This document shows, in pieces, positions 6,474-29,236 of a stretch of 64,000 bases of DNA. The notes under the pieces are model-generated. The model ran no database searches. It saw only the letters and a list, made by a program, of their open reading frames with translations, and had not been told where the DNA came from. Location of the stretch: positions 40,858-104,857 of the IMG/VR virus record IMGVR_UViG_3300025133_000042; one strand, 5' to 3'. This DNA comes from a virus. A program made the position numbers and the translations under genes. Numbering within the stretch: the first letter of the stretch is position 1; every line of letters begins with the position of its first letter.

Positions 6474-6707
6474 TTAATCACGGTCAAAATGCTTCTTTAT
6501 TTTGTGCAAGATCTTGTCTTCTAGCTGCTTTATTCTAACATAGCTCAAGCCCAAGCGATCTCCGATTTCGCGAAGAGTCATTGGCCCGTTGATGTTAACA
6601 CTTTCAAGCGTACAGTTTAAATCTTTACTATAGCTTATCCAGTATCTGCATTCTTCTACCGGGCATTCTACGTTTAATCTTTTGCATGTTTCTAGGCACT
6701 TTCTCAT
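6474..6707 (-). CDS. Small protein with sigma-70 region 4 HTH and Cys-rich N-terminus
   Basis: MTLREIGDRLGLSYVRIKQLEDKILHKI; five Cys in the N-terminal half. Confidence 0.8.
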   Translation of the reverse strand: MRKCLETCKRLNVECPVEECRYWISYSKDLNCTLESVNINGPMTLREIGDRLGLSYVRIKQLEDKILHKIKKHFDRD

Positions 6708-8408: not shown

Positions 8409-8411
8409 TTA

Positions 8412-8921: not shown

Positions 8922-9196
8922 TATAATACTCCATTTTCTTTCTCTACTTGTTCGATAATTGATTGAGCTTTGTTCCAGCAATCTGGACAATATAGTCTTA
9001 CAACTTTTTGCTCCTCTCTCACGATCACATTCCATGTCGTTACGTGCTCTTTCGATTTTTTATCAAAAGGCGCAGCACACGCTGCACATTCGTCGTCAAG
9101 CATATCAAACATCATTAGCTTCTTGGCCATTTGCTTTTCTGCTTTCTTCTGCTTTTTTAAGACGTTGCGCGCCATTTTTCTTTTTAAGCTTCCCAC
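8921..9196 (-). CDS. Small basic Zn-finger protein
   Basis: CAAC...CPDC, Lys-rich N-terminus. Confidence 0.75.
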   Translation of the reverse strand: MGSLKRKMARNVLKKQKKAEKQMAKKLMMFDMLDDECAACAAPFDKKSKEHVTTWNVIVREEQKVVRLYCPDCWNKAQSIIEQVEKENGVL

Positions 9197-12100
9197 TAGC
9201 CTAGCATCCTAAACGTGTGGCGAATTGATCGGGTGCTAAACCCCCAGTCTTCGCTATATTGAAGCTTTGCGGCATAAGGCCTGTTGATGTAAATATGATC
9301 ATCATCTTTAATCCCCCAGCACTTAATAGAGCTTGTCGTTGAAGTGTCGTCGATGACCTTGACAATCCAATAAAGCTTGTCATTTTTAGTTTTCTTGGGA
9401 ATGATTTCTCTCGGTATGAACCAAGAGATGCCCAAATCCTCATCGTAGTTGCCCAGCGGCGGGACCATGTTTCTGTTGATGGCCTCTCGGATTCTCTTAG
9501 TCAGGACCAAATCGAAAGGAAACATACCAGTAAGAGAAGAGACAAAATCAATCTTCTCTTCTCTCGTAAAATCCTCTTCTGGGGCGTATAAATTAATGTT
9601 TTCTTCCAGCTTCTTCTGACTCTTTGGCTTGTCTTGGATGCATGACATCCAAAAATGCTTGCAGCCAGTAAACCTCTCGTCGACTAATGAATCTAAAGCA
9701 CCGCTGCGACAGAGCACATCTAGTGCTTTTTTGTTCAATTTTGAATATACGATCTCTTCATTATATAGCAACTCCTCGACAGTGGTAAAAGGACGATTGT
9801 TGAGAATCTGCTCAACAGCCTTTTCGCCTAGGCCCTTGATGGAGCTGAAAGGCTGGATGAGGGTCTTCCCATCGCCTGCAATCTCCCATTGTTCAGTCGA
9901 GGTGTTGATGTTGATCTGCTCAATATTAAACCCATGTTTCTGAGCAAGGCTAATAGCTGCCTCTTTGCGAGATTCTGGCTCTTTGTCAAGGAAAGCTGCA
10001 GCCCAGCACTCAGGATAGTAGTTAAGAAGCCAGGCGCACTGGAAAGACAAGATTGAGTATGATACCGCATGCGACTTGTTAAAGCCATAGCCAGAGAAGT
10101 ACTCAAATTTCTGCCAAAGGCCTTGTGCCGTTGACCGATCGATGCCCTTCTCGACGCAGCCGGCAATAAACTTATCATAAATCTTGTTTTTTGCCTGTGC
10201 CCCCTTACCTGTACCTTTCTTGGTAAGGAGCTTGCGCAGCGCGTTGCCTTCATCCATTGTCAAATCCTTACCCAGCTTGTGAGCAAGAAGCGCAATCTGC
10301 TCTTGGAAAATCAAGAACCCTGCAGTTTCTTCGGTCACTCCTTTATCTAAGTCATTGAGATAATTAATCTCCTCAGGGCTGTGCTTGGCCTTAACATACC
10401 GCTTGTCCACTCCTGCGCTCAGGGGGCCTGGTCGATAAATAGAAGTAATGGCCGAGATATCAATAATATCTTTTGGCTTTGCGCGCTTGCAAAACTTTTG
10501 GGCTCCAGCGTTTGTAAACTGAAAAACGCCCATGAAATTTCCCTTTTGGAAAATGTTCTCATATACTTTTTGATCACTGAGATCGATCTTATCTGGGTGG
10601 AGCTTGGAATCATAATACTCCTTAATATCTTGGAAGGAGGGATTCTCGTTTCCATGGTATCGTTTTAAAACATGCCCGACTGCAGATTGGATCATCTCCA
10701 GGGTAGAGAGGCCGAGCAGATCAAACTTAATAAAACCCAAAGGCTCAAGGTGTCTAACGTTCTGGCCTTCCGACCAGGGCGTCTGGACAACCCCCTTCGA
10801 GCAGATAAGAGGCATGTGCCTGTCAAGATCTTCTCCAATCACGACGCCGCCGGCGTGGCGGCTCGTGGACCTCACTTGTCCTACTAGTGCTTCGACATGG
10901 GTCTTGATATCGGGATACTTGTCTAGAAACTTAATCAGCGAATCGGAATACTTCATCACCTCCTCGAAAGTTGGAATGTACATTCCTGCGCGAATGCCAT
11001 GATCTGCCTTTGCTTTTGGGGTTGCCTCCCTCACCATTCTTCCGGTGACAGAGTTGACCTCGACGAAAGGTACGTCGTAGAGCTTGCTAATATCCTTAAT
11101 CAACGAACGCAACTGAAGTGTGTTGAAGTTTGAAATGGGCACGACAGTTGTGTCTCCCCATTCCTTGGCAAGAATTTCTTTAAGCCCGAATGCATCGCTA
11201 ACATCGTAATCAATATCAGGATAGTCGGTCGCATCCGAGCGCAGAAAGCGGCTGAACAGAAGGCCATACTTAATCGGATCTACCTGAGTAATCCCAAGCG
11301 CGTACGCGACAAGAGAGCCCGCAGCGGAGCCGCGGCCGGGTCCGGAGAGCATGTGCTTGTTTGCCATGTCGCTAATCGCCTTCATGGTTAGGAAGTATTT
11401 GCTAAACCCCCTCTCGTTAATAACTGTAAGTTCATGCTTAAGACGGTCAATATATTCTTTGTTGTTGTCGAAGCCAAGCTTGCGAAGGGCAGCGATGGAC
11501 TCTTTGATGAGCGTCTCCTCTGCATCAGCGCCGGAAGGGACAACGAATCCAGGCAAGCGTACTGTGTCGTCTGGCATAAAAGCCTCAATTCGCTCATTCG
11601 CAATCCAGTGGGTTTTCACGAGAGAGTCATAAATCAAGTCATCATCATACTCAACGCCACACTCTTTGGAATACTTCTTATAGGACTCCCACATCTGATC
11701 GCCGTTCTTGGGGTATAGCTCCATGCCCATCTCGTCAACGTCAACTGGAAGTTCAGACTTGAGATATTCGGGCTTGTTCTTCGATTTACCAAGCCAACCT
11801 AAGCGCTTATAAAGCTCTCGGTCTTTCCAGGCAGCGGCGCTTGGGTAATGTGAATCAGCAGTAGAGATAAGGTCAATGTCAAACTCCTCATGCATCTGGA
11901 TGACATATTTATTTAGCTCGTGCTGCTCTGGTACATTGTTCCATTGCAGCTCGCCATACCAGCGGTCTCCAAGACAATCCATCATCTTGCGTGTGGTGGC
12001 CCTCATGGCGCCCAGGACTGCTTCAGGGCCGTCGTCGCGATTGTTCCAATAGTCTTTGGCGTAAACGCCGCCAAGACACGCAGAAGAGGCAATAACTCCC

Positions 12101-12627
12101 TCGCCATGCTCCTTTAAGAGCTTGTAGTCTAGCCTAGGCTTGCGATAGAAGTTATCACCCTGGTGAGAGTCAGAAACTATCTTGAAGATATTGTTCAAGC
12201 CAGTCTGATTCATAGCTAGCAACACAAGATGACCGCTATTATTAAGTTTGCTGGACTTGCCCTTAGAAGCCGTTTCGTCTTCTGCTTCGACTTTATCTGT
12301 GTCGTTGATGACCTTACGTGCTTGCTTCTTATCTTCTTTAATTCGATCGTACTCTCCCCTCCACTCCTCGATGGAGGCAATAAAATAGGCCTCGACGCCG
12401 AAGATTGGCTTAAAGGTCTTGCCTTGGGACTGCATCTTCTTTGCATGCAGAACCTGATAAGACAGACCATTCATGTTCCCATGGTCTGTCAAAGCAAGGG
12501 CCTCCATGCCATTTTCATATGCAAAGTCCATATGGTCTTGCGGATATCCAAAACCATCGAAGACCGAACCAGCAACGCTGTGTGCGTGCAAACCCACGAA
12601 GGGAATCTTACTCTCTTTTCTATTCAT
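9196..12627 (-). CDS. dnaE: DNA polymerase III alpha subunit (family C)
   Basis: PHP domain (LHAHS, TDHG, GVE, SACLGG, DSHY), GRGSAAGS, PDIDYD, KFDLLGL, YGFNKSHA, HhH IKGLG; likely start 12627. Confidence 0.97.
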   Translation of the reverse strand: MNRKESKIPFVGLHAHSVAGSVFDGFGYPQDHMDFAYENGMEALALTDHGNMNGLSYQVLHAKKMQSQGKTFKPIFGVEAYFIASIEEWRGEYDRIKEDKKQARKVINDTDKVEAEDETASKGKSSKLNNSGHLVLLAMNQTGLNNIFKIVSDSHQGDNFYRKPRLDYKLLKEHGEGVIASSACLGGVYAKDYWNNRDDGPEAVLGAMRATTRKMMDCLGDRWYGELQWNNVPEQHELNKYVIQMHEEFDIDLISTADSHYPSAAAWKDRELYKRLGWLGKSKNKPEYLKSELPVDVDEMGMELYPKNGDQMWESYKKYSKECGVEYDDDLIYDSLVKTHWIANERIEAFMPDDTVRLPGFVVPSGADAEETLIKESIAALRKLGFDNNKEYIDRLKHELTVINERGFSKYFLTMKAISDMANKHMLSGPGRGSAAGSLVAYALGITQVDPIKYGLLFSRFLRSDATDYPDIDYDVSDAFGLKEILAKEWGDTTVVPISNFNTLQLRSLIKDISKLYDVPFVEVNSVTGRMVREATPKAKADHGIRAGMYIPTFEEVMKYSDSLIKFLDKYPDIKTHVEALVGQVRSTSRHAGGVVIGEDLDRHMPLICSKGVVQTPWSEGQNVRHLEPLGFIKFDLLGLSTLEMIQSAVGHVLKRYHGNENPSFQDIKEYYDSKLHPDKIDLSDQKVYENIFQKGNFMGVFQFTNAGAQKFCKRAKPKDIIDISAITSIYRPGPLSAGVDKRYVKAKHSPEEINYLNDLDKGVTEETAGFLIFQEQIALLAHKLGKDLTMDEGNALRKLLTKKGTGKGAQAKNKIYDKFIAGCVEKGIDRSTAQGLWQKFEYFSGYGFNKSHAVSYSILSFQCAWLLNYYPECWAAAFLDKEPESRKEAAISLAQKHGFNIEQININTSTEQWEIAGDGKTLIQPFSSIKGLGEKAVEQILNNRPFTTVEELLYNEEIVYSKLNKKALDVLCRSGALDSLVDERFTGCKHFWMSCIQDKPKSQKKLEENINLYAPEEDFTREEKIDFVSSLTGMFPFDLVLTKRIREAINRNMVPPLGNYDEDLGISWFIPREIIPKKTKNDKLYWIVKVIDDTSTTSSIKCWGIKDDDHIYINRPYAAKLQYSEDWGFSTRSIRHTFRMLG

Positions 12628-12643
12628 ATTTGCCTCTGCAGAC

Positions 12644-12671
12644 ATTATAGAGACACAAAAGAGGAAATCAA
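12644..12671 (-). promoter_or_regulatory. sigma70-like promoter upstream of dnaE
   Basis: TTGATT-N16-TATAAT. Confidence 0.6.
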
Positions 12672-12868
12672 ACAGAAAGTGAATTATCTTTTTCAAAGAG
12701 GTAGAGACCAGTCTCTTCTAGGTTCAGCCTCTTTGGGATGGCTGCAAGCGGAAGAAGGCCATGAATGACAAAGACCAGGCCGGTGAGAAGCAGGCGCGCT
12801 CCAATTCCGCATGCAAAAAGTAAATGCTCCAGATATGACATATTTTTCTCTTGTAAGTGTTTAAACAT
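12668..12868 (-). CDS. DUF6356-like small membrane protein
   Basis: HL..NMSYLEHL.FA....IHGLLP pattern. Confidence 0.7.
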   Translation of the reverse strand: MFKHLQEKNMSYLEHLLFACGIGARLLLTGLVFVIHGLLPLAAIPKRLNLEETGLYLFEKDNSLSV

Positions 12869-15586: not shown

Positions 15587-17443
15587 CTAAATAACCTCGC
15601 AAGACCCTCCCGAACAGGCCAGCTCGCCAGTTAAATTAGTATTGTCATCAAACTCAACAACTTTTGCGATATCAACTTCGCGCAGAGAGCATGCGAGATT
15701 TTCGTACTCTTCCTTTGTACAGTCTTCAAATGGCGCCTGCTTGTACGTGTGGTCCGAAAAAGGCAAAACAGATAGGCCGTTATAAGTCGCTCTGTTCTCC
15801 CACATCCATTCACGAACAACATCCCATTCGTCCTCTCTGATAGAAACAGTCGCAGATACATTATGTGTATTCTGGCCGCGGCCATGGCCGGGGCGGACCC
15901 AATCAGAAGATATTTTCTTAATCCGACGAAGCAAATCCAAGCACCCTTCCTGTCTTGTAATCGCATTCTCTGGGGCCCTCTGGGGAACGGAAATAACAGC
16001 TGTATCATGGGGCCTAAAAAATTCATCCTCAACCAAATCGGCGTTATGAATAGCCAAATGCGTATAGATGGCTTCATTCTTGCCAACACGTAGTCGACGA
16101 ATATAATAGTCGTTATGCCATGCATGGATACCACTAGATGTCCCCAGCGTTAAAGATGTTGTTCCTGCAGGCTTAACACAGGTTGTCCGAGTGGCCGGCC
16201 GAATGTTGATTAAGGACGCGACGCGTCGGTTTTCTCTCCTAACAACGGAAGAAGCCGATTTCATATTTAAATCCAAAACGCGGCCGGAGGCAATACCAGT
16301 CATGGAGACCCCAATAAGCGCATCCTTTTCTGTTGTCCGGCGCCACACGTCGCGGAGATAATGAAAATCAGTATATCCTGCTTGCAAGGTTGCAATGAAG
16401 CTGGCTGCGCGGCAGCGGCTCTCATAGTCCTCTTGGCCGGTAAGATCAGAAGCGTTAACCTCGACCAAGTTGCAAAATTGATATGGCCTGAGGGCGATCT
16501 CGCAACACGGATTCGTGCCCCAGTCTTTGTCGTTTGAAAAATAGAACCCGGGCTCGCCGGCGCCGCTTGCTCTCACTCTTTCCCAAATTGAATTGAAGAA
16601 ATCTTTTGTTATAAGGTGTCGCATGAGGACAACTGAGTTGTTGGCTCTTCCTCGCTGAGGATTTGTCTCCCACCAATCTCCTGTCTTTGCTGCAAGCATT
16701 TCTTCATCTTCTGCGGAAAAAAGTGAAATAAGAGCAGCCCGACGGATCCCCCCGGCAAGAACAGCATCAGCAATATGACAAATGATATCATGCACTTCGA
16801 TAGGCTCAAGCTTGTCACCGCTCTCCTTCGCATCAAGAATTCCTCGTATCTTAAGGAGGCATTCTTTCAACGGTTGAGGGCCGGGAGCTTTGCCTCCAGA
16901 TGTAACTAGTCTGCTGCCTTTCGGACGGATGTCAGAAAAATCAAATTTTAATTTTGATCCGCCTTTAAAGTATGAGTTAACTAAAACCTTTACTGCGTCG
17001 GCCCATCCTTCGATCGAATCACCGATAAGATATCGCCTAGAGCGCTTTGCACTCGGCATCTGAAGTTCCGGGAGCTTATCAACATGGTGCCTTTGAACAG
17101 AATATCCAACACCAGTGCCGCCAAGAAGGAGAAACATGCACTCAGAAAAAGAAGCGACATGATCGATAGGCATATAAGCACAGTTGTATATCCTGTTAGG
17201 TGCCACTTCAATCGGCTTGCCCCCGAATTGCATGGAGCGCATGGATGGTAAAACTTTTTTCGCATAGACGTAATTATAAGCCTCTTCGACTTCAGTCCTT
17301 AAATTCGGATACTTCTTAAGGTGCATGGCCTTGTTGCGATCGACTAATTCCTCCCAGGTTTCACGTCTGTCTTCCTGCTTCAGATATCTTGCATATTTCA
17401 TATAAACAGTGATATCTGACAAAATTTTACTAGCTAGGTCCAT
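15587..17443 (-). CDS. nrdJ: Class II (B12-dependent) ribonucleotide reductase
   Basis: RRETWEE, YNC, GGIRRAA, TNPCCEI, CVKPAGT, C-terminal CSGGSC; no small-subunit gene nearby. Confidence 0.93.
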   Translation of the reverse strand: MDLASKILSDITVYMKYARYLKQEDRRETWEELVDRNKAMHLKKYPNLRTEVEEAYNYVYAKKVLPSMRSMQFGGKPIEVAPNRIYNCAYMPIDHVASFSECMFLLLGGTGVGYSVQRHHVDKLPELQMPSAKRSRRYLIGDSIEGWADAVKVLVNSYFKGGSKLKFDFSDIRPKGSRLVTSGGKAPGPQPLKECLLKIRGILDAKESGDKLEPIEVHDIICHIADAVLAGGIRRAALISLFSAEDEEMLAAKTGDWWETNPQRGRANNSVVLMRHLITKDFFNSIWERVRASGAGEPGFYFSNDKDWGTNPCCEIALRPYQFCNLVEVNASDLTGQEDYESRCRAASFIATLQAGYTDFHYLRDVWRRTTEKDALIGVSMTGIASGRVLDLNMKSASSVVRRENRRVASLINIRPATRTTCVKPAGTTSLTLGTSSGIHAWHNDYYIRRLRVGKNEAIYTHLAIHNADLVEDEFFRPHDTAVISVPQRAPENAITRQEGCLDLLRRIKKISSDWVRPGHGRGQNTHNVSATVSIREDEWDVVREWMWENRATYNGLSVLPFSDHTYKQAPFEDCTKEEYENLACSLREVDIAKVVEFDDNTNLTGELACSGGSCEVI

Positions 17444-18803
17444 TTTTTCTTTCCTTCTTGAATTGTTTGTAGTGTTCTGTTAGGCTTTTTGCTAACTGCC
17501 GTGGTGAGCTACTCTGGTTTATAACAGAAGGATCAATAGGTTCCAATACTTGGAGTGTAACATTGCTTGTGTCGATATGCATAGGGAACACTAGGCCGTC
17601 GGGGCCGTTGCGATTTTTTGCAACAAACATTCTTGCAGTATTCGCATTTTTGTCCCTGATTGTCCTTGAAATAGAACAAATAAAGTCCGCTACAAAACAC
17701 TTGTTAAACGCCTCCGAAATAGATTCCATAGTTACAACTTCTGCGTTCAATCCAGTCCTGTTTGTTTGGGATGCCGTCCACAGCGGGCACTTGTTTTCTT
17801 GCGCAATTGCCCTAAGGTCTTCATAAATAGACTCTAGTTCATTCCTTTTCTCCTTGAAGTTTGTGCAGCTTCGGAGCAAATCAGCGTAATCTACTATAAT
17901 CATGTCGATTTTTTGATTTTGTTTTTTTAATTTTTCTATATGAGATCTGATAGTATTGGGCGAGGCCGTTTTGGTCGGATACTCTTTAATAATCAATCGA
18001 CCTGGAATATCAGCAATGGCCTCCATGACCTCGTCCTTTCTATTAAAAAGAGTCGACAGAGGAATTCCGGATATGCAACTATCATATCTCTGACCAGTAA
18101 TTTCTTCGGAAAGCTCTAATGTGTAGTGCACTACATTTTTTCCAGTCTTAACGGCTTGGACGCCGAGGTGCGCTAGCGCCATAGATTTGCCGGCGCCCGT
18201 TGGTGCAATAACAACTCCCAGCTCGCCGGTCCCTAAGCCGCTCTTTGTCAATTTATCAATTCTGCTCCATCCAGTGGTAATCGGATTTCGTATTTTAATT
18301 TCATATCGGCGCTCAAAGTCTTTAATAAAGTCATGACCAAAGTCATTGTCCATGCCAAGCTTAAGTGCGTTGTCAATCACATTCTTGACTTCATCATAAG
18401 ATGAATTTTGAACCAGATCAACAGATTGTACCAAGGCCTCTTTCAGCTTTTGCCTCTTGCAGAAATCAAGAGAAGTAGATTTAATATACTTCTCGTCTGG
18501 AATACTGTTCTTTATCAACAGTCGGGCAAAATAATCTCGAACCTGCTTTTGGGTCGATTCATTCTCGTTATCCATCTCGGTGCGCAAAATCGTTGCCAAT
18601 GTCTGCTTCGTTGGATGGACGCCATATTCATTACGATAATCAAACAGCTTCTTGATAAACACCCTCAGGTATTTAAGCTCGAAAAAGTTAATATCTACAA
18701 TTTCTTCCATTTGATCCGCGAATGGACGATCTTCAATTATTAGATGAAGAAGGTCCTCTTGGAATCTCTTTCCATATTTTGAAAAGTCCGCTTCTAGTTT
18801 CAT
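17430..18803 (-). CDS. DnaB/gp41-like replicative helicase
   Basis: Walker A APTGAGKS, IIVDYADLL, WTASQTNR, KNRNG. Confidence 0.95.
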   Translation of the reverse strand: MKLEADFSKYGKRFQEDLLHLIIEDRPFADQMEEIVDINFFELKYLRVFIKKLFDYRNEYGVHPTKQTLATILRTEMDNENESTQKQVRDYFARLLIKNSIPDEKYIKSTSLDFCKRQKLKEALVQSVDLVQNSSYDEVKNVIDNALKLGMDNDFGHDFIKDFERRYEIKIRNPITTGWSRIDKLTKSGLGTGELGVVIAPTGAGKSMALAHLGVQAVKTGKNVVHYTLELSEEITGQRYDSCISGIPLSTLFNRKDEVMEAIADIPGRLIIKEYPTKTASPNTIRSHIEKLKKQNQKIDMIIVDYADLLRSCTNFKEKRNELESIYEDLRAIAQENKCPLWTASQTNRTGLNAEVVTMESISEAFNKCFVADFICSISRTIRDKNANTARMFVAKNRNGPDGLVFPMHIDTSNVTLQVLEPIDPSVINQSSSPRQLAKSLTEHYKQFKKERKNGPS

Positions 18804-18819: not shown

Positions 18820-18847
18820 AGAATAGCTACATTTTATTAGTTGTCTA
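18820..18847 (-). promoter_or_regulatory. sigma70-like promoter upstream of helicase
   Basis: TAGACA-N16-TATTCT. Confidence 0.5.
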
Positions 18848-19802
18848 GACACATCTTGTTGAAGTGTGCAAATAGATCAATAAAGTTTGATTCGCCAAAG
18901 CTATCCTTGGCCATCATCGTGATAAGCTTGGTTTTTGAGTACTCAAAAGAAAACCCCTTAACAACCTCCCGAATGTGCTTTTTGGCGCCAATGGTCAACA
19001 AAGGGGCGTACAGCTGCATCATTTGGTAGTTTCTATCCAGAATGTGCTGCTTATCCAGCACAGTCTGGTAGATTTTCACATTAGATTTTCTAGATGTTTC
19101 CTCAGCGAAATCCAACACATCGCTAAGTGTTGCTGACTTGTCTTCACAAAGAAAAGGAAATCGCTTAGCCACGGTCTTCAGTCCAGCGCCTCCGATACCC
19201 TCAAGATTGTCCGATTTGTCGCCGGCCATTGCACGGGCCATGGCAAAATTGCAAGGGTGAATGTCGAACTTTTCAACAATTTTGTTTTTATTAAGAATTT
19301 CTTTCTGGATTGGCCGGTAAAGCACAGTCTTGTCATCCAAGAGTTGAAAGAAATCTTTATCGCTCGATACAATAATTTTCTGATGATCTGAAAGCTCCGG
19401 CATTTGGCAGAGATGCGCAATGATATCGTCAGCTTCAGTTGACTTAAATTTAAATTGCACTATTGGCATCTCATTATAAAATTCAATAATCCTAGTTTGC
19501 TGCCAGAGCTTGTTCTCAAACTCTTCTTGCTCAGAAAGATTTCTAATTGCTCGATTCAAGCGGATTGCTTTACGGCCGGCTTTGTAGTCTTTCTTGATAG
19601 ATTTTCTTTTCGCGGAGCCGCCTTCGCCATCCCAACAGATGTAAATTTCATCTGGCTTCGTCTCTCGAACTAGCTTTTGAAGCGACTGTATGCACCCCTT
19701 TAGGCCGCCGATGGGGTTGCCATTAGTTGAAATGCTGGGGTTAACAATATAGTTGCGAAAAAAAAGATTTAGCTGATCAATTATCAGCACTCTTTGTGTC
19801 AT
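18837..19802 (-). CDS. 5'-3' exonuclease / flap endonuclease (T4 RNase H-like)
   Basis: LIID, YKAGR, EADDII, SSDKDFFQL, GDKSDN.EGIGG.G.KT; start MTQRVL at 19802. Confidence 0.93.
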   Translation of the reverse strand: MTQRVLIIDQLNLFFRNYIVNPSISTNGNPIGGLKGCIQSLQKLVRETKPDEIYICWDGEGGSAKRKSIKKDYKAGRKAIRLNRAIRNLSEQEEFENKLWQQTRIIEFYNEMPIVQFKFKSTEADDIIAHLCQMPELSDHQKIIVSSDKDFFQLLDDKTVLYRPIQKEILNKNKIVEKFDIHPCNFAMARAMAGDKSDNLEGIGGAGLKTVAKRFPFLCEDKSATLSDVLDFAEETSRKSNVKIYQTVLDKQHILDRNYQMMQLYAPLLTIGAKKHIREVVKGFSFEYSKTKLITMMAKDSFGESNFIDLFAHFNKMCLDN

Positions 19803-20142
19803 TGAGGTCCTCTCTGTAAATTCTACTTTTAAACTGTTTTGCACGGGTGACCAGGAACGAATATACGCCATCAATTTTTAGCGCTTCGGCTGACATCCTG
19901 CTGATGTGCCTTTTTAATGTAGGCTCCAAGATAAAAAATTTAACCTTTAAAATAGTTCTTTCTACTGTTTCAGAAACAGGCTTCGCTGGTTCAACAACCG
20001 TCGTTGTTGTGATACCGCAAACGCCTCTTAGATTGTCAGTCAGAACTGTTAAATTCTTAGATCGATCGGACCTTAAAACGACAGTAGCTACATAGAGTTG
20101 GTCTCTAAAGACTTCTAATATGAGATCTTTCAAATTCTGCAT
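19777..20142 (-). CDS. Hypothetical protein
   Basis: ORF with late motif at 20160-20167; N-terminal LKDLILE. Confidence 0.65.
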   Translation of the reverse strand: MQNLKDLILEVFRDQLYVATVVLRSDRSKNLTVLTDNLRGVCGITTTTVVEPAKPVSETVERTILKVKFFILEPTLKRHISRMSAEALKIDGVYSFLVTRAKQFKSRIYREDLNDTKSADN

Positions 20143-20926: not shown

Positions 20927-22036
20927 TTATTCCTCTTTATCAATATCATAAAAGCTAGATGCATCTGCCTCTCTCTTTTCAAACTTTAATATAACCTCGT
21001 CGTCCATCAAAGTCAATACGCGGGTCCTAAATTTCTCACTTTTTAGCTTTTCCATCCATCTAGAAGCTTGAAATTTCTCAGAAGTTCCATCTTCATAGAT
21101 CAGGTTGTACCATGCGCCTTTCTGTTCGACGCTTTTAGAGCCTTTAATCGCCTCGAACCAGCTTTCTTCATCTTGAATGCCGATTCTGCTCCCCCACATA
21201 ATCTTGAAAGTGCATTGGCGGCCTTCGGTGCCAAAGCGACTCTTTTTAAGTGTCACTTTTACTTCCGAACCCACCCTAAAGCCATTCTCATCCAACAAAA
21301 AGCTGGCCTTGGCTTTACGCTTGGTCAGCCAAATGCGCAGAGAATAAGCATAATGCATTGCTTTCCCGCCCGGGGTTACGTAGGGCTCGACCATAGCCTC
21401 CGAAGGACTTCTTGTGATATTCGTCTTAAGCTGATTAAGCACGAGCAACGTTGATTTGCTATCGGCAATCGGAATCGCCAATTTGGACATTCCCTTTGCC
21501 AGAATACGAGCCTTGACTGCCATGGACGACTGTGGATTAAAATCTCCCTCGACGTCGCTAATGGCAGGCGTTAAGGCAAGGCTATCCCAAATAAATAGCA
21601 TTCTGTTGTCATTTGACCCTAGAAGCTCTTCGACGGTCTCCAGAACAAACTCCACACTTTGCGCCTGCACGTACAACAAATTATCTAAGTCGCAGCCCGC
21701 GTTACTCAAAAAAGTGGGATCGATGGCGGACTCAGAATCAAAATAAATGACATCAATACCCATCTTTTGGGCGTTTGCAGCAACTTGTGCTGCCATATAA
21801 GACTTTCCAGACCCTTCGAGGCCTGCAATTTCAACAATTTTGCCGAGTGGGACGCCTGCGAGGCGGCCCCTGCAAATCATTGAATCGAGCCAACGAGATC
21901 CAGTACCAATCCAATCGGTTACTTCTGTTGGATTTTCTTCTTTCAAATCGTAGGCAACATGCATGCCTGCTTTCTTGTTGATGAGAGTCCTCATCTCATC
22001 TAAATTCAACTTACCAAGTTTCTTTCTCTTCGCCAT
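20927..22036 (-). CDS. recA: RecA/UvsX recombinase
   Basis: GLEGSGKS, YFDSESAID, IWDS, LNQL, TPGGKA. Confidence 0.96.
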   Translation of the reverse strand: MAKRKKLGKLNLDEMRTLINKKAGMHVAYDLKEENPTEVTDWIGTGSRWLDSMICRGRLAGVPLGKIVEIAGLEGSGKSYMAAQVAANAQKMGIDVIYFDSESAIDPTFLSNAGCDLDNLLYVQAQSVEFVLETVEELLGSNDNRMLFIWDSLALTPAISDVEGDFNPQSSMAVKARILAKGMSKLAIPIADSKSTLLVLNQLKTNITRSPSEAMVEPYVTPGGKAMHYAYSLRIWLTKRKAKASFLLDENGFRVGSEVKVTLKKSRFGTEGRQCTFKIMWGSRIGIQDEESWFEAIKGSKSVEQKGAWYNLIYEDGTSEKFQASRWMEKLKSEKFRTRVLTLMDDEVILKFEKREADASSFYDIDKEE

Positions 22037-22338: not shown

Positions 22339-22381
22339 AAGGCCTCTGTAAACCCAGGCCTTCCTGTGGGATATAGCTACT
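22339..22381 (-). repeat. Intergenic structured repeat, copy 1
   Basis: 43 bp, one mismatch to copy 2; includes the FKBP stop codon; AAGGCCT-N10-AGGCCTT hairpin. Confidence 0.9.
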
Positions 22382-22826: not shown

Positions 22827-22869
22827 AAGGCCTCTGTAAACCCAGGCCTTCCTGCGGGATATAGCTACT
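22827..22869 (-). repeat. Intergenic structured repeat, copy 2
   Basis: 43 bp near-identical to 22339-22381; includes the stop codon of the ParB-like gene. Confidence 0.9.
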
Positions 22870-23806
22870 TGCCTAGAATATCTTCTAGTTCGTCAATATA
22901 AGACTTGAAAATTTTATTAAAAGCCCTCTTGGAGATTTGGTGGTCCTTGCACGTGCTCTGAAAATGCTTCAAAAATCCAACGGCAATAGACTCTGCGGCC
23001 CTGTTGGTCACATTGCCACCCTCTCTCTTATAATGTGTGGTAAAACTCCTTGCGTTCTTATGGTAGTTGACCGCACCATCAAAATAGGAAATAAAAGCCT
23101 CTTTCGCATTGGAGCGGCTATGCAGATCGGTGTTTTTGTAGATCAAAGCCATGGCGTGTAAAAGCTCTGCTTGACAGCTAGACTGCTCGGGCCATGTGCT
23201 TGTGTACAGCTTAGCCGCACGTTCCAGCGCTTGCAAATTGGTTGCAGCCAGCGCTTTTCGAAAAGCCTGAATCTTGACTCGCGTTTCAATCGTAGAGCCT
23301 GTGCAGCCAACAGAACTGCCTTTTTCCCCAGTTCCCATGCTAACAGTAAGTCCACACTTTTCTAGGCACTTTGCTGTTTTTCGTGCCTCGTCGTGGTTGG
23401 CGTGATATTGATGGACAAAAAGCTCTTCGCTGGTAAGACATATCTTGCCGGTCTTATTACGGTGAATAAACAACTCACTAATCTCCCTCTTGTCTTTCAC
23501 CAGACAAACAACAGCTTGCATGGTCTTGTCCTCTGGAAACGCCAGGTTCCAAAGTGCTCGACTGTGATCACCATCAAATAACAGCATCTCGCCGTCGGGG
23601 AGCCTCGCCACATGAGGGGGGTCCCACAAGCGCATATCAAATCCTAGCAGTCCGCCAACATACTGATTGAGTGCTTTTGTGGTTGTCTTTCTATTGAGAT
23701 ATGAATCGATATCAACAGAAACCTGCTCAATCGTTGGCTTCTTACTATAAGTGATCTTAAAATTATTCTGCAACGTAACTTCGTTGCCGTATATTGTTTT
23801 AGACAT
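22865..23806 (-). CDS. ParB/Srx-like domain protein (DUF6551-like)
   Basis: PPHVARLPDGEMLLFDGDHS (DGxH motif), E.SELFI..N. Confidence 0.7.
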   Translation of the reverse strand: MSKTIYGNEVTLQNNFKITYSKKPTIEQVSVDIDSYLNRKTTTKALNQYVGGLLGFDMRLWDPPHVARLPDGEMLLFDGDHSRALWNLAFPEDKTMQAVVCLVKDKREISELFIHRNKTGKICLTSEELFVHQYHANHDEARKTAKCLEKCGLTVSMGTGEKGSSVGCTGSTIETRVKIQAFRKALAATNLQALERAAKLYTSTWPEQSSCQAELLHAMALIYKNTDLHSRSNAKEAFISYFDGAVNYHKNARSFTTHYKREGGNVTNRAAESIAVGFLKHFQSTCKDHQISKRAFNKIFKSYIDELEDILGK

Positions 23807-23833: not shown

Positions 23834-23866
23834 AAGGCACCTCTTAGCCCGTGCCTTCCTGCGGCT
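23834..23866 (-). repeat. Intergenic structured repeat, diverged copy 3
   Basis: CCGCAGG-AAGGCAC-N10-GTGCCTT; stem retained by compensatory changes. Confidence 0.8.
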
Positions 23867-23878
23867 CATACAGAGAAC

Positions 23879-24340
23879 TTAGTTCTCAATATTCAAAACG
23901 CCTAGGTCGGTGCGAACTGACGTTGACCAGCCATTAAAGACGTACTCTGGGGTTGATAATACATCTCCAACAGTTGTTTTTACGCTAGCTTCTAGATTGA
24001 AGAAGCCACGCTTATAATCGTAACGCTCCGTAGAGCGTTCAATAAAGCCCATATCCCAAAAGTTCTCAGCGATCACATCACTAACAAATTCTTGAAATCC
24101 AGAATAATCACGAGGATATTCTTCTAAATAGTCGCCATCGCGAAGGTCCTGAATCACACTGTTAAGGAACCCAGTCGTAGCTACTAGGCCTGCCACAGTG
24201 TCGGCGAAGCCTGTATCGCGCAAAACTTCTTCTTCATAGCCATCCCAAGCATGAACGACATCGCCGCCGGTGGTATAAGTCAGAGTGATATTCTTGTCGT
24301 TGCTTAGGCCTGCGGCCTTTAGTTTCTGATGAAAACTCAT
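23879..24340 (-). CDS. Hypothetical acidic protein
   Basis: Start MSFHQK at 24340, directly after ssb. Confidence 0.75.
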   Translation of the reverse strand: MSFHQKLKAAGLSNDKNITLTYTTGGDVVHAWDGYEEEVLRDTGFADTVAGLVATTGFLNSVIQDLRDGDYLEEYPRDYSGFQEFVSDVIAENFWDMGFIERSTERYDYKRGFFNLEASVKTTVGDVLSTPEYVFNGWSTSVRTDLGVLNIEN

Positions 24341-24350
24341 TTTTTGTCCC

Positions 24351-25103
24351 CTAAGAACCAAGAAGCTCGTTAAAAGCAGCGTCAACTTCGGTTACCTGCG
24401 TGGATTTATTGTATCGACTTGACTCGCTTGAAACCTCCTCTGCGTCCTCTTCGTTTAAGAGGAATTCATCAAGCATTCCTTGAACCTCCTGCGGCGTCTT
24501 GCGAGAATTCTCAAAAACCACATTAAAATCAGGCACTTGGTCCAACATCGAGGAGATGGTATCTTCATCGCCGGCGAGTGGGGATGATTTACGACGGGGC
24601 GTGATAGTTGTCTGCGGGAACTGTGCGCCGGGAGGCTTTCCGTAGGTAAGAACAAGGTCAGTGCCCTCGTTAACATCAGTAATGTCTCCATACTCAGGAT
24701 TCAATACCAAGTTGAGCAGCTCCTTGTAAGCCATCTTGCCAAATCCCCAAAGGCGTACGCCTTGGTCTTCCTCACCGCGGACGAGAACGGGAGCGAAAAA
24801 GCGCTGACGGGCGCTCAAATTCTTTGCCATCTTGACGGCGTCATCTGACCCGTCGCGATAGAGTTGACGAACAAAATCATCCAAAGGATCTTCCTCTCCA
24901 AAGTTCTTCTTCGGGCTTAAAAAGCTTGCGTTCTTGCCCAAGTTGTAATGGAACCAGTACTCCTTAAACGGGTCGCCGTCAGAAGTGGGAACAATGCGAA
25001 TTGTCTGCTCTCCGTCCTCTGGGCGCCAAAAAGCACTCTTTCCGTTGCCGCGATTTTCCAAGGCCTCGCGCTTTGCCTTCATCTTCTCTAAATCAATACC
25101 CAT
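24351..25103 (-). CDS. Single-stranded DNA-binding protein (gp32-like)
   Basis: FWRP...IRIVP...FHY, GVRLWGFGK, YGDITD..EGTD, acidic tail ending AFNELLGS. Confidence 0.88.
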   Translation of the reverse strand: MGIDLEKMKAKREALENRGNGKSAFWRPEDGEQTIRIVPTSDGDPFKEYWFHYNLGKNASFLSPKKNFGEEDPLDDFVRQLYRDGSDDAVKMAKNLSARQRFFAPVLVRGEEDQGVRLWGFGKMAYKELLNLVLNPEYGDITDVNEGTDLVLTYGKPPGAQFPQTTITPRRKSSPLAGDEDTISSMLDQVPDFNVVFENSRKTPQEVQGMLDEFLLNEEDAEEVSSESSRYNKSTQVTEVDAAFNELLGS

Positions 25104-25134
25104 AGTCTTTCTCCTTTTGCTTTAAGCTATAGTA

Positions 25135-25156
25135 CGGTCAGCGAATATTCTGACCG
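25135..25156 (-). promoter_or_regulatory. Hairpin in the ssb leader
   Basis: CGGTCAG-AATATTCG-CTGACCG between a TATCAT -10-like box and the AGGAG SD. Confidence 0.5.
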
Positions 25157-25186
25157 GCTTTGTTATATGATAGCTACCATTTTTTA

Positions 25187-26026
25187 CTATGAAAATAAAT
25201 TTTCATTTTGTATGATAGTCGCCGAATGGGTCGTAAAAACATAATCATTTTCATACTTTGTAGCATAAATGCTGTATGACGCTCTGACGTTTTCATTAGA
25301 AGTAGATTTAATTTTTTGATTTATTTTCTTAAGCAGGCCAGGCGTCTCTGCGATCTTAGATTCGCTAAGGGCGAATATGTACTCCTTCTCGCGCACGTAA
25401 TTTAATTTATAAAACAAGCTTTCATCATTTGTGTCAAAATTCATCTGCCCTATTGTTTTGATTTTAGCTGTAAGAGGCGGTTCCGACGAGATGGACATCA
25501 CGGGAGCAGAGTGACTGAAAATATTCATCATGTGGATGGTGTTCACTATGGCTTGATTTATCGAGTTCCAATATTCACTGAGAGTTGTGTCTCCCACTAT
25601 TCCTTCCATCTCTAAGTTTGAGATGAGAATAATCTGCTCCAACAAGCCCGATCTTGTATATTCTTGAAGTATGTTTCTAACCGCGAACTCTCTCTTTTTC
25701 GCATCTGGCGAAAGCATTTCGACATCAGGCTGGATATAAGCGACAGAAAGGCTATTGCCTTTTAGGCCCTCAAGCAACCTCAGTGCAGCGCCAGTTATGT
25801 TTCCTGAGCCTGCGAGGACGAGACACACAGCACCAAGCTTGTCGCCAAACTTAATGCGACGAAATCTTTTCTCATAGTCTTCCATGCTGACTTGCTCTTT
25901 AATCTTTTTAAAGCTTTTATAGCCCTTGTTGGCTGTGTCGACACAAAAAGTATTATATTGTGGGTGCTGAGCAAAAAGATTGGCGATCTTGCAGCCGGCC
26001 TCGCCGAGACCGATAATTGTTTCCAT
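25187..26026 (-). CDS. Divergent tubulin/FtsZ-family protein
   Basis: IIGLGEAGCKIA (T1 loop), CVDT, LAGSGNITG at the T4-loop position, YIQP, LISN. Confidence 0.75.
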   Translation of the reverse strand: METIIGLGEAGCKIANLFAQHPQYNTFCVDTANKGYKSFKKIKEQVSMEDYEKRFRRIKFGDKLGAVCLVLAGSGNITGAALRLLEGLKGNSLSVAYIQPDVEMLSPDAKKREFAVRNILQEYTRSGLLEQIILISNLEMEGIVGDTTLSEYWNSINQAIVNTIHMMNIFSHSAPVMSISSEPPLTAKIKTIGQMNFDTNDESLFYKLNYVREKEYIFALSESKIAETPGLLKKINQKIKSTSNENVRASYSIYATKYENDYVFTTHSATIIQNENLFS

Positions 26027-26055
26027 TATAAACCTATTCGCTTTGCGCTGGCAGA

Positions 26056-26403
26056 TCAGGCTTGGGCTGTTTTGGCGGCCATCTTGGCACGGCGTTTGGC
26101 CGTCGCGGCTTGCTCGCCGCCAAGACGAGATACGTCGGATTTAATATTAATTCCTAGATAATCAGCAATAAGAGTTAAATACTGTCTTTTCTCTACGTCG
26201 CTAGCGCGTTCTTTAAATATGTCCATATGCGTCTGAGCGCGACTCATCATCTTCTCGAACGCTGTCGTTACCGCGGTTTTTGAGGCGTCGCGGCCTGAAA
26301 CTGCAGTCGGTGGAGCGCCTAGGCGATCGGCGGGCTCGGCCTCTAACAAGCCAGAGATTTCTTCTTTGATAATCTGTTTAAGTCGTTTTTTTGTCATGCT
26401 CAT
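26056..26403 (-). CDS. Hypothetical protein, candidate head-internal protein
   Basis: N-terminal TKKRLKQIIKEEI..LLE; late-like motif at 26428-26435. Confidence 0.7.
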   Translation of the reverse strand: MSMTKKRLKQIIKEEISGLLEAEPADRLGAPPTAVSGRDASKTAVTTAFEKMMSRAQTHMDIFKERASDVEKRQYLTLIADYLGINIKSDVSRLGGEQAATAKRRAKMAAKTAQA

Positions 26404-26424
26404 GTTAAATTTCTCCCAGTAGCA

Positions 26425-27612
26425 CTATAAATAGGCCGATAAGTTCTTTAAGTCCCCGTAATTTTTACCGGCGCTTAAACTAGCTCTAAACTTGCCAAAC
26501 TGTGTATCAGAGAATATTTCAATCATGTCTTTTAGAATATCGCGGTCTGAATCACTGAAGTCGATAACAGCACTATCATGCACACAAAAAGAAATATACG
26601 ACTTTCTACCTTTTAACATTTTATCAATTTTCATAAGCTGTGTCAAGAACAAATCGCTTGTTGTGCTCTGAACAAGATAGTTCAGCGCTTTGTGATCTGT
26701 TGCCGCTATTCTTCTTCCGAATGGTGTGTGGACAAACCCATCGTAATAATACTCATCTAAAACCTGCTCTCTGCTAAAAACCGCTTCAAGCTTCTTGTTG
26801 GAAGCTTTCGGGTTGTAAAGCCATGCAAAGACTTTCTTTTTAACCTCATCCCTTGTTTTCTTGCCCTTAAAGACAGTTTCCCCAATCCACTCATGGATGT
26901 CCCCTTCAGGCTGGGAAGCGCCGTTAAGGGCCAATAAAGTGCGTAATTCGGCGGCATTATAGTCAATCTCGACAAACCAATCGTTGTTAGGCCGGATAAC
27001 ATGGCGATGTCGCTTATCTAGCGTCAGAATAGGAAAGCTGGATGTCTTTGTCGTGAGCCTTCCGGTGGTACTTTTCCACTGATCATACAAGATACTCGCT
27101 TGGCCAGAGTCAATTTTGTTTTTCAACTTACGACCGGTCAAACTAGCCAGATTTATATCCTTTGCTGAGAGATTTAATCTCTGATTCGACATTTTTGTCA
27201 CCATTCTTGCTAGATCAACAAGAAAATCATAATTTTCTGGCTTTTCGATTGTGTCAAAGACGTGCTTGGAGATTTTATTTTTCATTTCGCAAAGCTTAAT
27301 TAAGTAATTTTTTGGCACCAAATCGTAAAAACAAACATCATTCAAATCAACCTTACAAGTTGCAAAAGCTTTAATAAAAGCCATTCCTTTTTTGTGCAAG
27401 ATATCGTATTCATCCTTGAGATCGACGGGGCATGCTTGCTGAAGGCTGCTTCCCAGAGACCAAATATGCGCATACAAAATTTCTTCGCCTTGAACGTGTT
27501 CAGTGTATGCCCAAGTTTTTTGCAAATCTAGATCGGTGGTGTCATAATGCAGCTCGTTGTTGCAATAAACGGCATGACATTCTTGCTTTTCGTCAAATGC
27601 TTGAAAAAACAT
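26425..27612 (-). CDS. Minimal family A DNA polymerase (palm/fingers)
   Basis: TTGRL, motif A IDYNAAELR, motif B R..VK..VFAWLY, TPFGRR, NYLVQS, motif C VHDS; only 395 aa. Confidence 0.85.
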   Translation of the reverse strand: MFFQAFDEKQECHAVYCNNELHYDTTDLDLQKTWAYTEHVQGEEILYAHIWSLGSSLQQACPVDLKDEYDILHKKGMAFIKAFATCKVDLNDVCFYDLVPKNYLIKLCEMKNKISKHVFDTIEKPENYDFLVDLARMVTKMSNQRLNLSAKDINLASLTGRKLKNKIDSGQASILYDQWKSTTGRLTTKTSSFPILTLDKRHRHVIRPNNDWFVEIDYNAAELRTLLALNGASQPEGDIHEWIGETVFKGKKTRDEVKKKVFAWLYNPKASNKKLEAVFSREQVLDEYYYDGFVHTPFGRRIAATDHKALNYLVQSTTSDLFLTQLMKIDKMLKGRKSYISFCVHDSAVIDFSDSDRDILKDMIEIFSDTQFGKFRASLSAGKNYGDLKNLSAYL

Positions 27613-27688: not shown

Positions 27689-29236
27689 CTAATAGCCGCC
27701 TGGTGACTGGCCAGAAGTATTGCTAGGTGCAACTGAAGGCGTCATTGCTGCCTCCAACAGGTCGTCTCCGGCCGGCGGTTCGGAGAACTGCTCATCGTCG
27801 ACTTCCTGAGCGGTTTGATCATGAAAAGGGCCCTTTCGGGGGGTGTGTCTTGATAGTTCATCATAAACTATAAGATCGCGGACGGCCTTCGTAAAGAATC
27901 CAGTTTTAATATTTTGCTTCTTGCGATATGCATTGATGTCAAATAATATTTTTTTAACAGTTTTTTGGAATCCGTAGGCCCTATAATACGACATTAGTCT
28001 CCCAAGATCGGAAGCTATTTTAGCTGGCTCAATTTTTATCTTATGTTCAGCCACTTTAATCTGATAATAAAAATTTAACCAGAATTTATCATCGTAATCG
28101 ATATAATATGCGGAGTTGGTACGGAGATTTCGTTCTTCGTCAAATGCGCGCATGGGCGTTCTTGTCGCCTTGCCAACTTTTAATGTCTCGGTACCGTTGA
28201 TGTGGCATCTTCTGGTGTATGGAACGTCAACATCTGGCATGAAACCAACGTAATTGTTGTAAAAAGCCACCATGTGAAACTTTAATAACTCCACATCAAT
28301 CCTGAAAGCATCTTTGTATATTCTCTTCATTAATGATTTCATGGTTAAGTCATCACCGAGCATAATTTGCTTTTGTGCGCCGGCGCGCATCTTCGGGTGA
28401 TTTAAATTTGCCACCAGGCGCCAAGGGATGTTCTTATCAACCATAAAGCCATGAGTCGTTGCCATTCTTTTGTAAATTGGAAAGAGCGGAGATATAAAGA
28501 AGTTTGAAAATTTATTTGCATCATCATCGTAGTCAGACTGATTTACTTCTATTGTGCAGCCGTTTACATTCATTGGGCAATATGCAGACTGTATGAAAGA
28601 GCTGAATGTTATAGGTATATCTCTGGCAGCTAAGTGACAAAAATCTATGAAATGCTTAACAAAGTGTTCAAAAATTAATATTTTTGAATGCTGGTTTGAT
28701 AAATAATCCGTCGTAAGGGCGCGATACAAAGTCGACATATGCTCGTGGTACAGAATCGAAGGGGATTGCCAAGCTTTCGAAACGTTCAAAGGAAACATAG
28801 ATTGTTCTTCTAGCGCGTCGATGGGCAGAAAGCCGCCTGCTTTACGAATATAACTTTCAGCGTTAACCACCATCTCTTCAAACAGATCAACAACATAATT
28901 TATAGCGAAAAGATCCTGGCTGACGGCAGAGGTAAACTGCTTTAAATATATCATATCTGACAAGTGTATGGGCATGCCAGCAGGGTCGACCTTACCAAAC
29001 TCAGTTGTGGTATTCCATGTGTCGATTAGACCAAAGTCTTCACCTTCGATCTGCTGAAATGCCTTTTCTTTGTAATATAGCCTCTCTTCAAACAGCAAGC
29101 CTGAATCAAGATAATTGACGCCAACTGGCAAATCTCTTTCTTCATCAAATGGCCTTGCGCCGCGGTCGGCTAATATCCTTTCTTCTTCGAAGGCCAATTC
29201 GGGAGATGCTTCATATATTTTTACATTATCACTCAT
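27689..29236 (-). CDS. Hypothetical protein at the end of the baseplate module
   Basis: 515-aa ORF, GFMVDKNIPWRLVANL. Confidence 0.7.
   Translation of the reverse strand: MSDNVKIYEASPELAFEEERILADRGARPFDEERDLPVGVNYLDSGLLFEERLYYKEKAFQQIEGEDFGLIDTWNTTTEFGKVDPAGMPIHLSDMIYLKQFTSAVSQDLFAINYVVDLFEEMVVNAESYIRKAGGFLPIDALEEQSMFPLNVSKAWQSPSILYHEHMSTLYRALTTDYLSNQHSKILIFEHFVKHFIDFCHLAARDIPITFSSFIQSAYCPMNVNGCTIEVNQSDYDDDANKFSNFFISPLFPIYKRMATTHGFMVDKNIPWRLVANLNHPKMRAGAQKQIMLGDDLTMKSLMKRIYKDAFRIDVELLKFHMVAFYNNYVGFMPDVDVPYTRRCHINGTETLKVGKATRTPMRAFDEERNLRTNSAYYIDYDDKFWLNFYYQIKVAEHKIKIEPAKIASDLGRLMSYYRAYGFQKTVKKILFDINAYRKKQNIKTGFFTKAVRDLIVYDELSRHTPRKGPFHDQTAQEVDDEQFSEPPAGDDLLEAAMTPSVAPSNTSGQSPGGY

Follow-up and report, generated by a model that had tools for sequence, protein, structure and literature searches.

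A compact divPolA1-type DNA polymerase and a minimal tubulin-fold protein in the replication gene block of an uncultured marine T4-like phage

Introduction

The divPolA1 class of phage DNA polymerases was named by Yutin et al. 2024 ("DNA polymerase swapping in Caudoviricetes bacteriophages", Virol J 21:200, PMC11348598; bioRxiv 10.1101/2024.04.26.591309). The type is gene 1 of Flavobacterium phage vB_FspM_immuto (immuto), and the class includes 13 related uncultured genomes of 155-190 kb. These proteins have an intact palm, a truncated thumb and replaced exonuclease aspartates, and they are always encoded besides a regular polymerase of family A, B or C (PMC11348598). A conserved replication gene set follows divPolA1 and the regular polymerase lies amid chaperonin and nucleotide-metabolism genes; divPolA1, not the regular polymerase, occupies the conserved replication context (PMC11348598). 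The sequences of the class include MK892584, a marine GOV-bin record, and LR796625. Here, a 395-aa family-A polymerase (mini-PolA) and a nearby 279-aa tubulin-fold protein are described from a 64,000-nt stretch of viral DNA, referred to as the window. The window comprises bases 40858-104857 of the 104,857-bp IMG/VR contig IMGVR_UViG_3300025133_000042, which has a CheckV completeness of 58%.

The 395-aa protein belongs to this published class, and the polymerase itself is therefore already known. The tubulin-fold neighbour is a previously undescribed minimal variant of a known superfamily. A supplementary file of PMC11348598 contains no mention of FtsZ or tubulin, and no relevant description was found in the literature on tubulin beside gp32/UvsX or in marine T4-like phages. 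A nucleotide search of cultured phages for the whole finding gives no match.

Results

The compact polymerase

Three genes on the minus strand of the window are central to the analysis:

26425..27612, minus strand: compact, exonuclease-dead family-A DNA polymerase of the divPolA1 type, 395 aa (Pfam PF00476, AlphaFold2, Foldseek, VIA)
26056..26403, minus strand: open reading frame (ORF) of 115 aa (orf115) between the polymerase and tubulin genes; no family match
25187..26026, minus strand: minimal tubulin/FtsZ-fold protein, 279 aa (AlphaFold2, Foldseek, VIA)

The 395-aa protein matches Pfam DNA_pol_A (PF00476) at 46.1 bits, with a cut-off of 34.3, and it is recovered too by a search of the window's own genome record. 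Its AlphaFold2 model, built from a 57-sequence alignment, has a predicted local distance difference test score (pLDDT) of 95.5. The top Foldseek matches of this model are Pol I polymerase domains at E 1e-12. In VIA-align, 372 of the 395 residues superpose on residues 316-876 of the Bst large fragment (Z 25, root-mean-square deviation (rmsd) 3.7), and Taq and M. smegmatis Pol I give similar scores. Because the superposition spans nearly the whole chain, the model indicates compaction of an entire Klenow-like unit that still includes an exonuclease-domain remnant, rather than a bare palm left by the loss of a single domain.

Residue equivalences come from a profile alignment to Klenow, with columns counted over 57 diverse homologues:

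D217: Klenow D705; kept in 57 of 57
E222 (steric gate): Klenow E710; E in 42 and D in 14 of 57
D238-I-H240: Klenow D732-I-H734; D238 in 57 of 57
R254, K258, F262 and Y266: Klenow R754, K758, F762 and Y766, with identical spacing; 57, 57, 47 and 55 of 57
Q315: Klenow Q849; 56 of 57
H345-D346: Klenow H881-D882; H in 52 and D in 57 of 57
S347 ("VHDS"): position of Klenow E883; S in 46 of 57

Six residues are invariant in the family (D217, D238, R254, K258, D346 and D351), both catalytic aspartates among them. Column conservation over residues 1-175 reveals no Exo I-III acidic triad, and only D7 reaches approximately 75%. The protein is about 210 residues shorter than Klenow, or roughly two-thirds of the normal size. 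In profile-alignment coordinates, the shortfall is approximately 158 residues ahead of the TGRL motif and approximately 34 at the finger tip. The active site is thus intact and of the dNTP-selecting type, the 3'-5' exonuclease remnant is dead, and the thumb and finger tip are shortened.

These results agree with an earlier sequence-only reading of the window, made without database searches. It had recognised a 395-aa PolA with motifs A, B and C and VHDS at the last of these, which the Klenow alignment places as S347 for E883. The shortened thumb and fingers and the absence of clear exonuclease motifs from the N-terminal ~150 aa, both described in that reading, correspond to the two losses and the missing triad given above. 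Structure prediction with Foldseek, which it had recommended, returns the Pol I polymerase domain for this protein and FtsZ/TubZ folds for its tubulin-like neighbour.

Compared with the Klenow, Bst and Taq large fragments, the mini-PolA retains the overall fold from the exonuclease remnant to the C-terminus, the residues of motifs A, B and C, and the R-K-F-Y spacing. It differs from them in length, in the lack of an exonuclease triad and in the Ser at the position of Glu883. Unlike in bacterial Pol I, the 5'-3' nuclease is not fused to the polymerase but is encoded by a separate gene 6.5 kb downstream.

The mini-PolA resembles divPolA1 in being a compact PolA with an intact palm, a truncated thumb and a dead exonuclease, as judged from the AlphaFold2 model, the VIA alignment and the motifs. 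It is also additional to a regular polymerase, here DnaE, and is followed by genes for a single-stranded-DNA-binding protein (SSB), a recombinase, a 5'-3' nuclease and DnaB. In hhalign, the mini-PolA family profile matches immuto gene 1 with a probability of 98.6% over 281 columns. The tblastn query coverage is 73-74% on immuto and Microcystis phage Mel-JY01 versus 55-57% on ordinary phage Pol I. The gene order in immuto is PolA, two ORFs, SSB, RecA, 5'-3' exonuclease, DnaB and ribonucleotide reductase, and the order in Mel-JY01 is equivalent. There are three differences from the published class. The window protein is only ~21-24% identical to the immuto protein (441 aa); the marine branch to which it belongs is far larger than the 14 genomes listed in PMC11348598; and this branch always has a downstream tubulin-fold gene, which is absent from immuto and unmentioned in PMC11348598.

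Mini-PolA relatives are abundant in marine metagenomes, Tara samples included. A word-indexed search finds at least 1256 clusters at 90% identity, the best 120 of which are all 373-406 aa long. An exhaustive search yields 1102 representatives at 50% identity, of which 244 have E values below 1e-30; nearly all are about 390 aa long. IMG/VR contains at least 584 mini-PolA loci. The class is under strong purifying selection, because more than 1000 clusters have near-uniform length and six residues are invariant.

Two other identities were considered for the protein. A decaying fragment or pseudogene, which the sequence-only reading had linked to loss of the catalytic aspartates, is ruled out by more than 1000 clusters of ~390 aa and by the presence of D217 and D346 in 57 of 57 homologues. 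An RNA polymerase or primase is not favoured. The steric-gate E/D at position 222 (56 of 57) and the F262/Y266 ladder are conserved, which fits a DNA polymerase rather than an RNA polymerase.

The tubulin-fold protein

The AlphaFold2 model of the 279-aa protein, based on 34 homologues, has a pLDDT of 91.5 and a predicted template modelling score (pTM) of 0.90. Foldseek matches this model to FtsZ and TubZ at E 1e-12. In VIA-align, the Z scores range from 20.7 to 24.2, with 24.2 for CetZ (257 aa, rmsd 2.9), 22-23 for TubZ and 21-22 for FtsZ and eukaryotic tubulins. All of these matches span residues 1-279. Among the viral models in BFVD, a 452-aa "FtsZ" from an uncultured phage scores best, and phage tubulins that include PhuZ come next. 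In a protein atlas based on language-model features, the protein falls among 25 all-viral clusters, one of which is auto-named tubulin/FtsZ GTPase domain protein. TubZ-like clusters and viral tubulins are its nearest named neighbours in the atlas.

Sequence profiles do not recover this relationship. The 279-aa protein has no match in Pfam (including Tubulin, PF00091), PHROGs or NCBIfam. A search of PDB sequences with the family profile returns only chance matches and no FtsZ or tubulin chain, and tblastn against cultured phages gives no match. The hhalign comparison of the family with E. coli FtsZ has an insignificant probability of 0.1%, yet it recovers the expected register. That register, which is statistically worthless alone, defines the positions from T4 to H7 below. 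The T7 register is taken from predicted secondary structure, not from a solved complex.

T1-like loop: G6-L-G8-x-A-G11, invariant
T4 signature, GGGTG(S/T)G: degenerate, G73-S-G75-x-I-(S/T)-G79, with a two-residue deletion placed there by hhalign
T5 position: P100-D101
T6 position: conserved Asn, N137
H7 position: conserved Asn, N157
T7 stretch, 171-180: no position conserved as D/E; among the 34 homologues, position 174 is K in 11, D in 10 and E in 5, and position 178 is D in 12, G in 8 and S in 6
C-terminus: the chain stops at residue 279, directly after the last core strand, with no tail and no extra helices

The most conserved motif of the family is (V/I)LQEY(A/T)RS at residues 119-126, and it has no nameable counterpart.

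On the structural models, the 279-aa protein is a genuine but minimal member of the tubulin/FtsZ superfamily, and it probably binds nucleotide. In tubulin and FtsZ filaments, an acidic residue of the T7 loop activates GTP hydrolysis. Judged from its sequence, canonical filament-activated GTPase activity is unlikely for the 279-aa protein. The sequence-only reading had called it a degenerate tubulin/FtsZ homologue, and both the fold (AlphaFold2, Foldseek, VIA) and the degenerate T4 bear this out.

The protein shares with TubZ, RepX and PhuZ, and with CetZ and FtsZ, the full-length two-domain fold, the T1-like G-x-G-x-A-G loop and the Asn residues at T6 and H7. It differs from all of them in having no significant sequence similarity, a degenerate T4 and no conserved T7 acid. 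Unlike TubZ and PhuZ, it has no tail, no extra C-terminal helices and no recognised TubR-like partner; none of its neighbours (PolA, orf115 and gp32) is recognised as TubR-like in general Pfam and PHROG scans. Its location inside the replication/recombination gene block of a T4-like phage also differs from that of known prokaryotic tubulins.

Linkage of the two genes

The tubulin gene is downstream of the polymerase in all 80 IMG/VR loci retrieved with the polymerase. Conversely, the polymerase is upstream of the tubulin gene in 148 of 148 testable IMG/VR loci. There are 156 tubulin loci in total, and 8 are not counted as their contigs end within 620 bp; one polymerase-only locus likewise ends too early. 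The synteny survey suggested in the sequence-only reading finds the pair in every IMG/VR locus of these sets where it can be assessed.

The distance between the two genes is variable. The stop and start codons overlap in 69 of the 148 loci, mostly by 4 or 13 nt. The gap is at most 30 bp in 15 loci, 42 bp in two and 237-1952 bp in 62, where other ORFs are inserted. In the window, the genes are separated by orf115. The sequence-only reading had placed PolA, tubulin and SSB in one cluster. The cluster exists and the SSB gene follows the tubulin gene, but PolA and tubulin are not adjacent, with orf115 (26056-26403) between them. Because inserts are present in 62 loci and overlaps in 69, the slot between the genes is an insertion hot spot, and translational coupling of polymerase and tubulin is frequent but dispensable.

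The slot contents are diverse. The orf115 protein has no match in Pfam, PHROG or NCBIfam, and tblastn detects none in 80 related loci. Only its first ~17 residues have a counterpart, at the equivalent position of another locus (L085:3018-3371), and similar N-termini occur in L028, L087, L089 and L128. The shared motif is M-x-I/M-T-K/R-K-x-L-K/I-Q-I/L-I-K-E-E, and the remainder of these ORFs is dissimilar. The commonest insert is a helical ORF of ~103-107 aa starting ...YNKLVRDKIPEII..., which is present in ~45 loci, or roughly a third (e.g., L015:11182-11493). Its similarity to the all-alpha dUTPase family PF08761 is weak and below threshold (E 0.0095), and from its sequence it may be a pyrophosphatase that cleans the nucleotide pool. 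In three loci, the slot holds an ORF of ~641 aa with a hydrophobic, signal- or lipoprotein-like N-terminus.

In immuto and Mel-JY01, the ORFs between divPolA1 and SSB (151 and 171 aa, and 428 aa, respectively) are unrelated to the tubulin-fold protein, and hidden tubulin homologues are ruled out. The Mel-JY01 protein (L084:9646-10932) has a domain of the S-adenosylmethionine-lyase family (PF23780, E 4e-10). S-adenosylmethionine lyase is a known type of anti-restriction activity. Because these two phages have divPolA1 with unrelated ORFs in the slot, the polymerase is the older element and the tubulin gene an addition in the marine branch.

A near-consensus sigma-70-like site is located at 26646-26618 on the minus strand, inside the 3' part of the polymerase gene. 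It consists of TTGACA, 17 nt and TAAAAT with an upstream TG, and 11 of 12 positions agree. On this consensus match only, the site could drive orf115 and the tubulin gene separately from the polymerase.

Possible shared history of the two proteins

Distance matrices were compared for PolA, tubulin, gp32 and UvsX in 70 non-redundant four-protein sets (69 loci and the window). The partial rank correlations, with the number of 500 permutations that reach each value, are as follows:

PolA and tubulin: r 0.42; 0 of 500
gp32 and UvsX: r 0.32; 0 of 500
Tubulin and gp32, which are equally adjacent: r 0.23; 0 of 500
Tubulin and UvsX: r 0.11; 44 of 500
PolA and UvsX: r 0.08; 53 of 500
PolA and gp32: r 0.00; 232 of 500

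The mean p-distance is 0.53 for PolA and 0.60 for tubulin versus 0.39 for gp32 and 0.30 for UvsX. The correlation of PolA with tubulin fits co-evolution, as a hint only. Taken together, the linkage and distance tests slightly favour a possible functional link between polymerase and tubulin.

Genome context and replication gene block

The window phage encodes a T4-type capsid protein, portal, large terminase and tail sheath. The nearest cultured relatives of the capsid protein are in Flavobacterium phage immuto, Microcystis phage Mel-JY01 and Rhodothermus phage RM378, at 33-47% identity. The source is a marine T4-like phage, as yet uncultured, whose replicative polymerase would be a DnaE of the bacterial type. 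The minus strand carries every gene of the region, and all ORFs of the sequence-only reading are present where it had placed them. The other replication genes of the window are:

24351..25103, minus strand: gp32-type SSB (Pfam gp32 PF08804, 52 bits, cut-off 26.8; PHROG 1192, E 8e-24)
20927..22036, minus strand: UvsX/RecA recombinase (Pfam RecA, E 3e-36; PHROG 97 UvsX-like, E 2e-55)
18837..19874, minus strand: stand-alone 5'-3' flap nuclease, FEN / RNase H type (Pfam 5_3_exonuc_N, E 8e-30)
17430..18803, minus strand: DnaB-type replicative helicase (Pfam DnaB_C, E 1e-22)
9196..12696, minus strand: DnaE (Pol III alpha) with PHP domain, the "regular" polymerase (Pfam DNA_pol3_alpha, finger, PHP, HHH_6)

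The DnaE 14 kb away and the stand-alone 5'-3' nuclease at 18837, both named in the sequence-only reading, are hereby confirmed by Pfam. Among the 80 loci, the SSB gene follows the tubulin gene in 73, UvsX is syntenic in 63 and the flap nuclease is syntenic in 45. The flap nuclease is present in immuto and Mel-JY01 too, and it co-occurs with mini-PolA in all three lineages examined. T4-like phages have FEN/RNase H in any case.

Five near-complete relatives (155-204 kb, two with terminal repeats) each encode exactly one DnaE and no PolB, and the mini-PolA is their sole PolA. A search of the window's own contig finds no PolB and no exonuclease of the DnaQ type (PF00929) or PolA type (PF01612).

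The neighbourhood of DnaE contains four further assigned genes:

1704-3269: Cpn60/GroEL-type chaperonin
4775-5455: ClpP
7042-8097: GMP-reductase/IMPDH-family enzyme
8412-9035: dUTPase/dCTP-deaminase-like protein

These surroundings (window 1704-9035), with a chaperonin and nucleotide metabolism, are the context published for the regular polymerases of divPolA1 phages.

Several other features are found near the module. A 43-nt direct repeat with an internal inverted repeat is present at 22339-22381, 22827-22869 and 23834-23876; two copies are 98% alike and the third is 63% alike. The copies flank an FKBP gene (22377-22802) and a 313-aa ORF (22865-23806) between SSB and UvsX, and they resemble cassette boundaries or 3'-end RNA elements. 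Four ORFs have no significant Pfam match: 22865-23806 (313 aa), 23879-24385 (168 aa), 27689-29236 (515 aa) and 29264-31945 (893 aa). The first three also have no match in NCBIfam. Most relatives also have the 515- and 893-aa proteins upstream of the polymerase, with identities of only 21-31%.

Discussion

The folds, catalytic residues, family size, synteny and polymerase complement given above are observations; every activity of the polymerase and the tubulin-fold protein, and any physical partnership of the two, is something that we infer and word conditionally. The explanation preferred here, held tentatively and at a little short of an even chance, is that the divPolA1 polymerase and the tubulin-fold protein are both accessories of a replisome in which DnaE, with its PHP domain, would carry out bulk synthesis. 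The mini-PolA, whose gene heads the conserved gp32, UvsX, flap nuclease and DnaB module, would act as an accessory DNA polymerase that works distributively and does not proofread. Most likely it would perform short-patch synthesis on gp32-coated DNA, filling gaps once the flap nuclease has removed primers and extending D-loops made by UvsX, which would start recombination-dependent replication. The tubulin-fold gene, acquired in the marine branch, would be co-transcribed with the polymerase. Its product would still bind nucleotide but lack the usual hydrolysis-activating residue. Because that residue is absent, we read the protein as an accessory with a static or regulatory part in the replication module rather than as a dynamic spindle like PhuZ.

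Several points weigh against this explanation. The whole region is syntenic in the clade, and adjacency alone says little. Other ORFs lie between the polymerase and tubulin genes in 64 of 148 loci and in the window, and in immuto and Mel-JY01 divPolA1 is present but a tubulin homologue is not. The bootstrap difference between the PolA-tubulin and tubulin-gp32 correlations is marginal (0.18, 95% interval 0.008-0.353), and tighter linkage with similarly fast rates alone would yield the PolA-tubulin correlation without any interaction. The position of divPolA1 in the conserved replication context leaves room for a role as main replicase.

A narrower proposal, made in the sequence-only reading, is a split Pol I in which the mini-polymerase and the free flap nuclease share the work of a single enzyme. 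Taken alone, this is possible but doubtful. It cannot be the whole story, because divPolA1 phages with a regular PolA or PolB would need no extra gap-filler. As the regular polymerase that accompanies divPolA1 may be of family A, B or C, its role extends beyond DnaE replisomes.

The tubulin-fold protein may instead act independently, as a TubZ/PhuZ/RepX-like cytoskeletal or DNA-positioning element that organises or segregates replicating phage DNA and is next to the polymerase through conserved gene order. The TubZ fold match (Z 22-23), the TubZ-like and viral tubulin clusters that are nearest by language-model features, the BFVD matches to PhuZ and phage "FtsZ", and the synteny of the entire block are all compatible with such an element. 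It is nonetheless unlikely, given the absence of a conserved acidic T7 residue, the degenerate T4 signature, the lack of a C-terminal tail or extra helices of the sort used in filament contacts and adaptor binding, and the lack of a TubR-like partner recognised beside the gene in general Pfam and PHROG scans. The missing T7 acid and tail also weaken the idea, put forward in the sequence-only reading, of a filament-organised replication site.

A dedicated subunit of the mini-polymerase is a rather unlikely role for the tubulin-fold protein. In such a two-subunit enzyme, it would make up for the shortened thumb by serving processivity or loading, or would tie synthesis to the nucleotide state. 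Linkage of the two genes is invariable in the marine clade, their stop and start codons overlap in 69 of the 148 loci, the PolA-tubulin partial distance correlation is the highest among the neighbours tested, and both proteins evolve much faster than gp32 and UvsX. Set against these observations, divPolA1 occurs without a tubulin-fold protein in the immuto and Mel-JY01 lineages, inserts interrupt the coupling in 43% of loci, and linkage alone accounts for the correlation. The more specific claim, that the tubulin fold has been recruited as a DNA polymerase partner that binds divPolA1 or the primer-template as a processivity, loading or nucleotide-sensing subunit, is distinctly unlikely.

It is quite improbable that the mini-PolA is a damage-tolerance or repair polymerase, exonuclease-free like Pol theta and Pol nu, that serves phages of sunlit surface water outside normal fork metabolism. 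The lack of proofreading, the compact and probably low-processivity architecture, the nearby recombinase and SSB genes, and the abundance of relatives in marine metagenomes including Tara samples would suit such an enzyme. No inserts specific to lesion bypass are seen, the enzyme being shortened rather than expanded, and its conserved place at the head of the core replication block suggests a routine role.

A true replicative role, with DnaE redundant or in another role, would fit the conserved replication context that divPolA1 occupies, unlike regular polymerases (PMC11348598), but it is very improbable, as genomes of 155-204 kb would be copied slowly and with errors by a thumb-truncated, proofreading-free enzyme and as DnaE is full length (PHP, finger and HhH domains) and is kept in five of five near-complete relatives.

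The findings have consequences for both protein families. The window polymerase is a further divPolA1 member, from the largest branch seen here. In this marine branch, divPolA1 coexists only with DnaE, a clear setting in which to learn what a phage replisome gains from a second polymerase that lacks proofreading. The tubulin/FtsZ superfamily is extended to a 279-aa minimal form that is missed by sequence profiles and is widespread in ocean viromes. This minimal tubulin is located in a replication/recombination operon and not in a partition or phage-nucleus system. Filaments of the 279-aa protein, if it forms any, would be the smallest tubulin-like polymer known. Should the protein bind the polymerase or DNA, this would be a new use of the tubulin fold, and if the polymerase and the tubulin-fold protein are partners, hundreds of marine phages would carry a two-gene machine for DNA synthesis.

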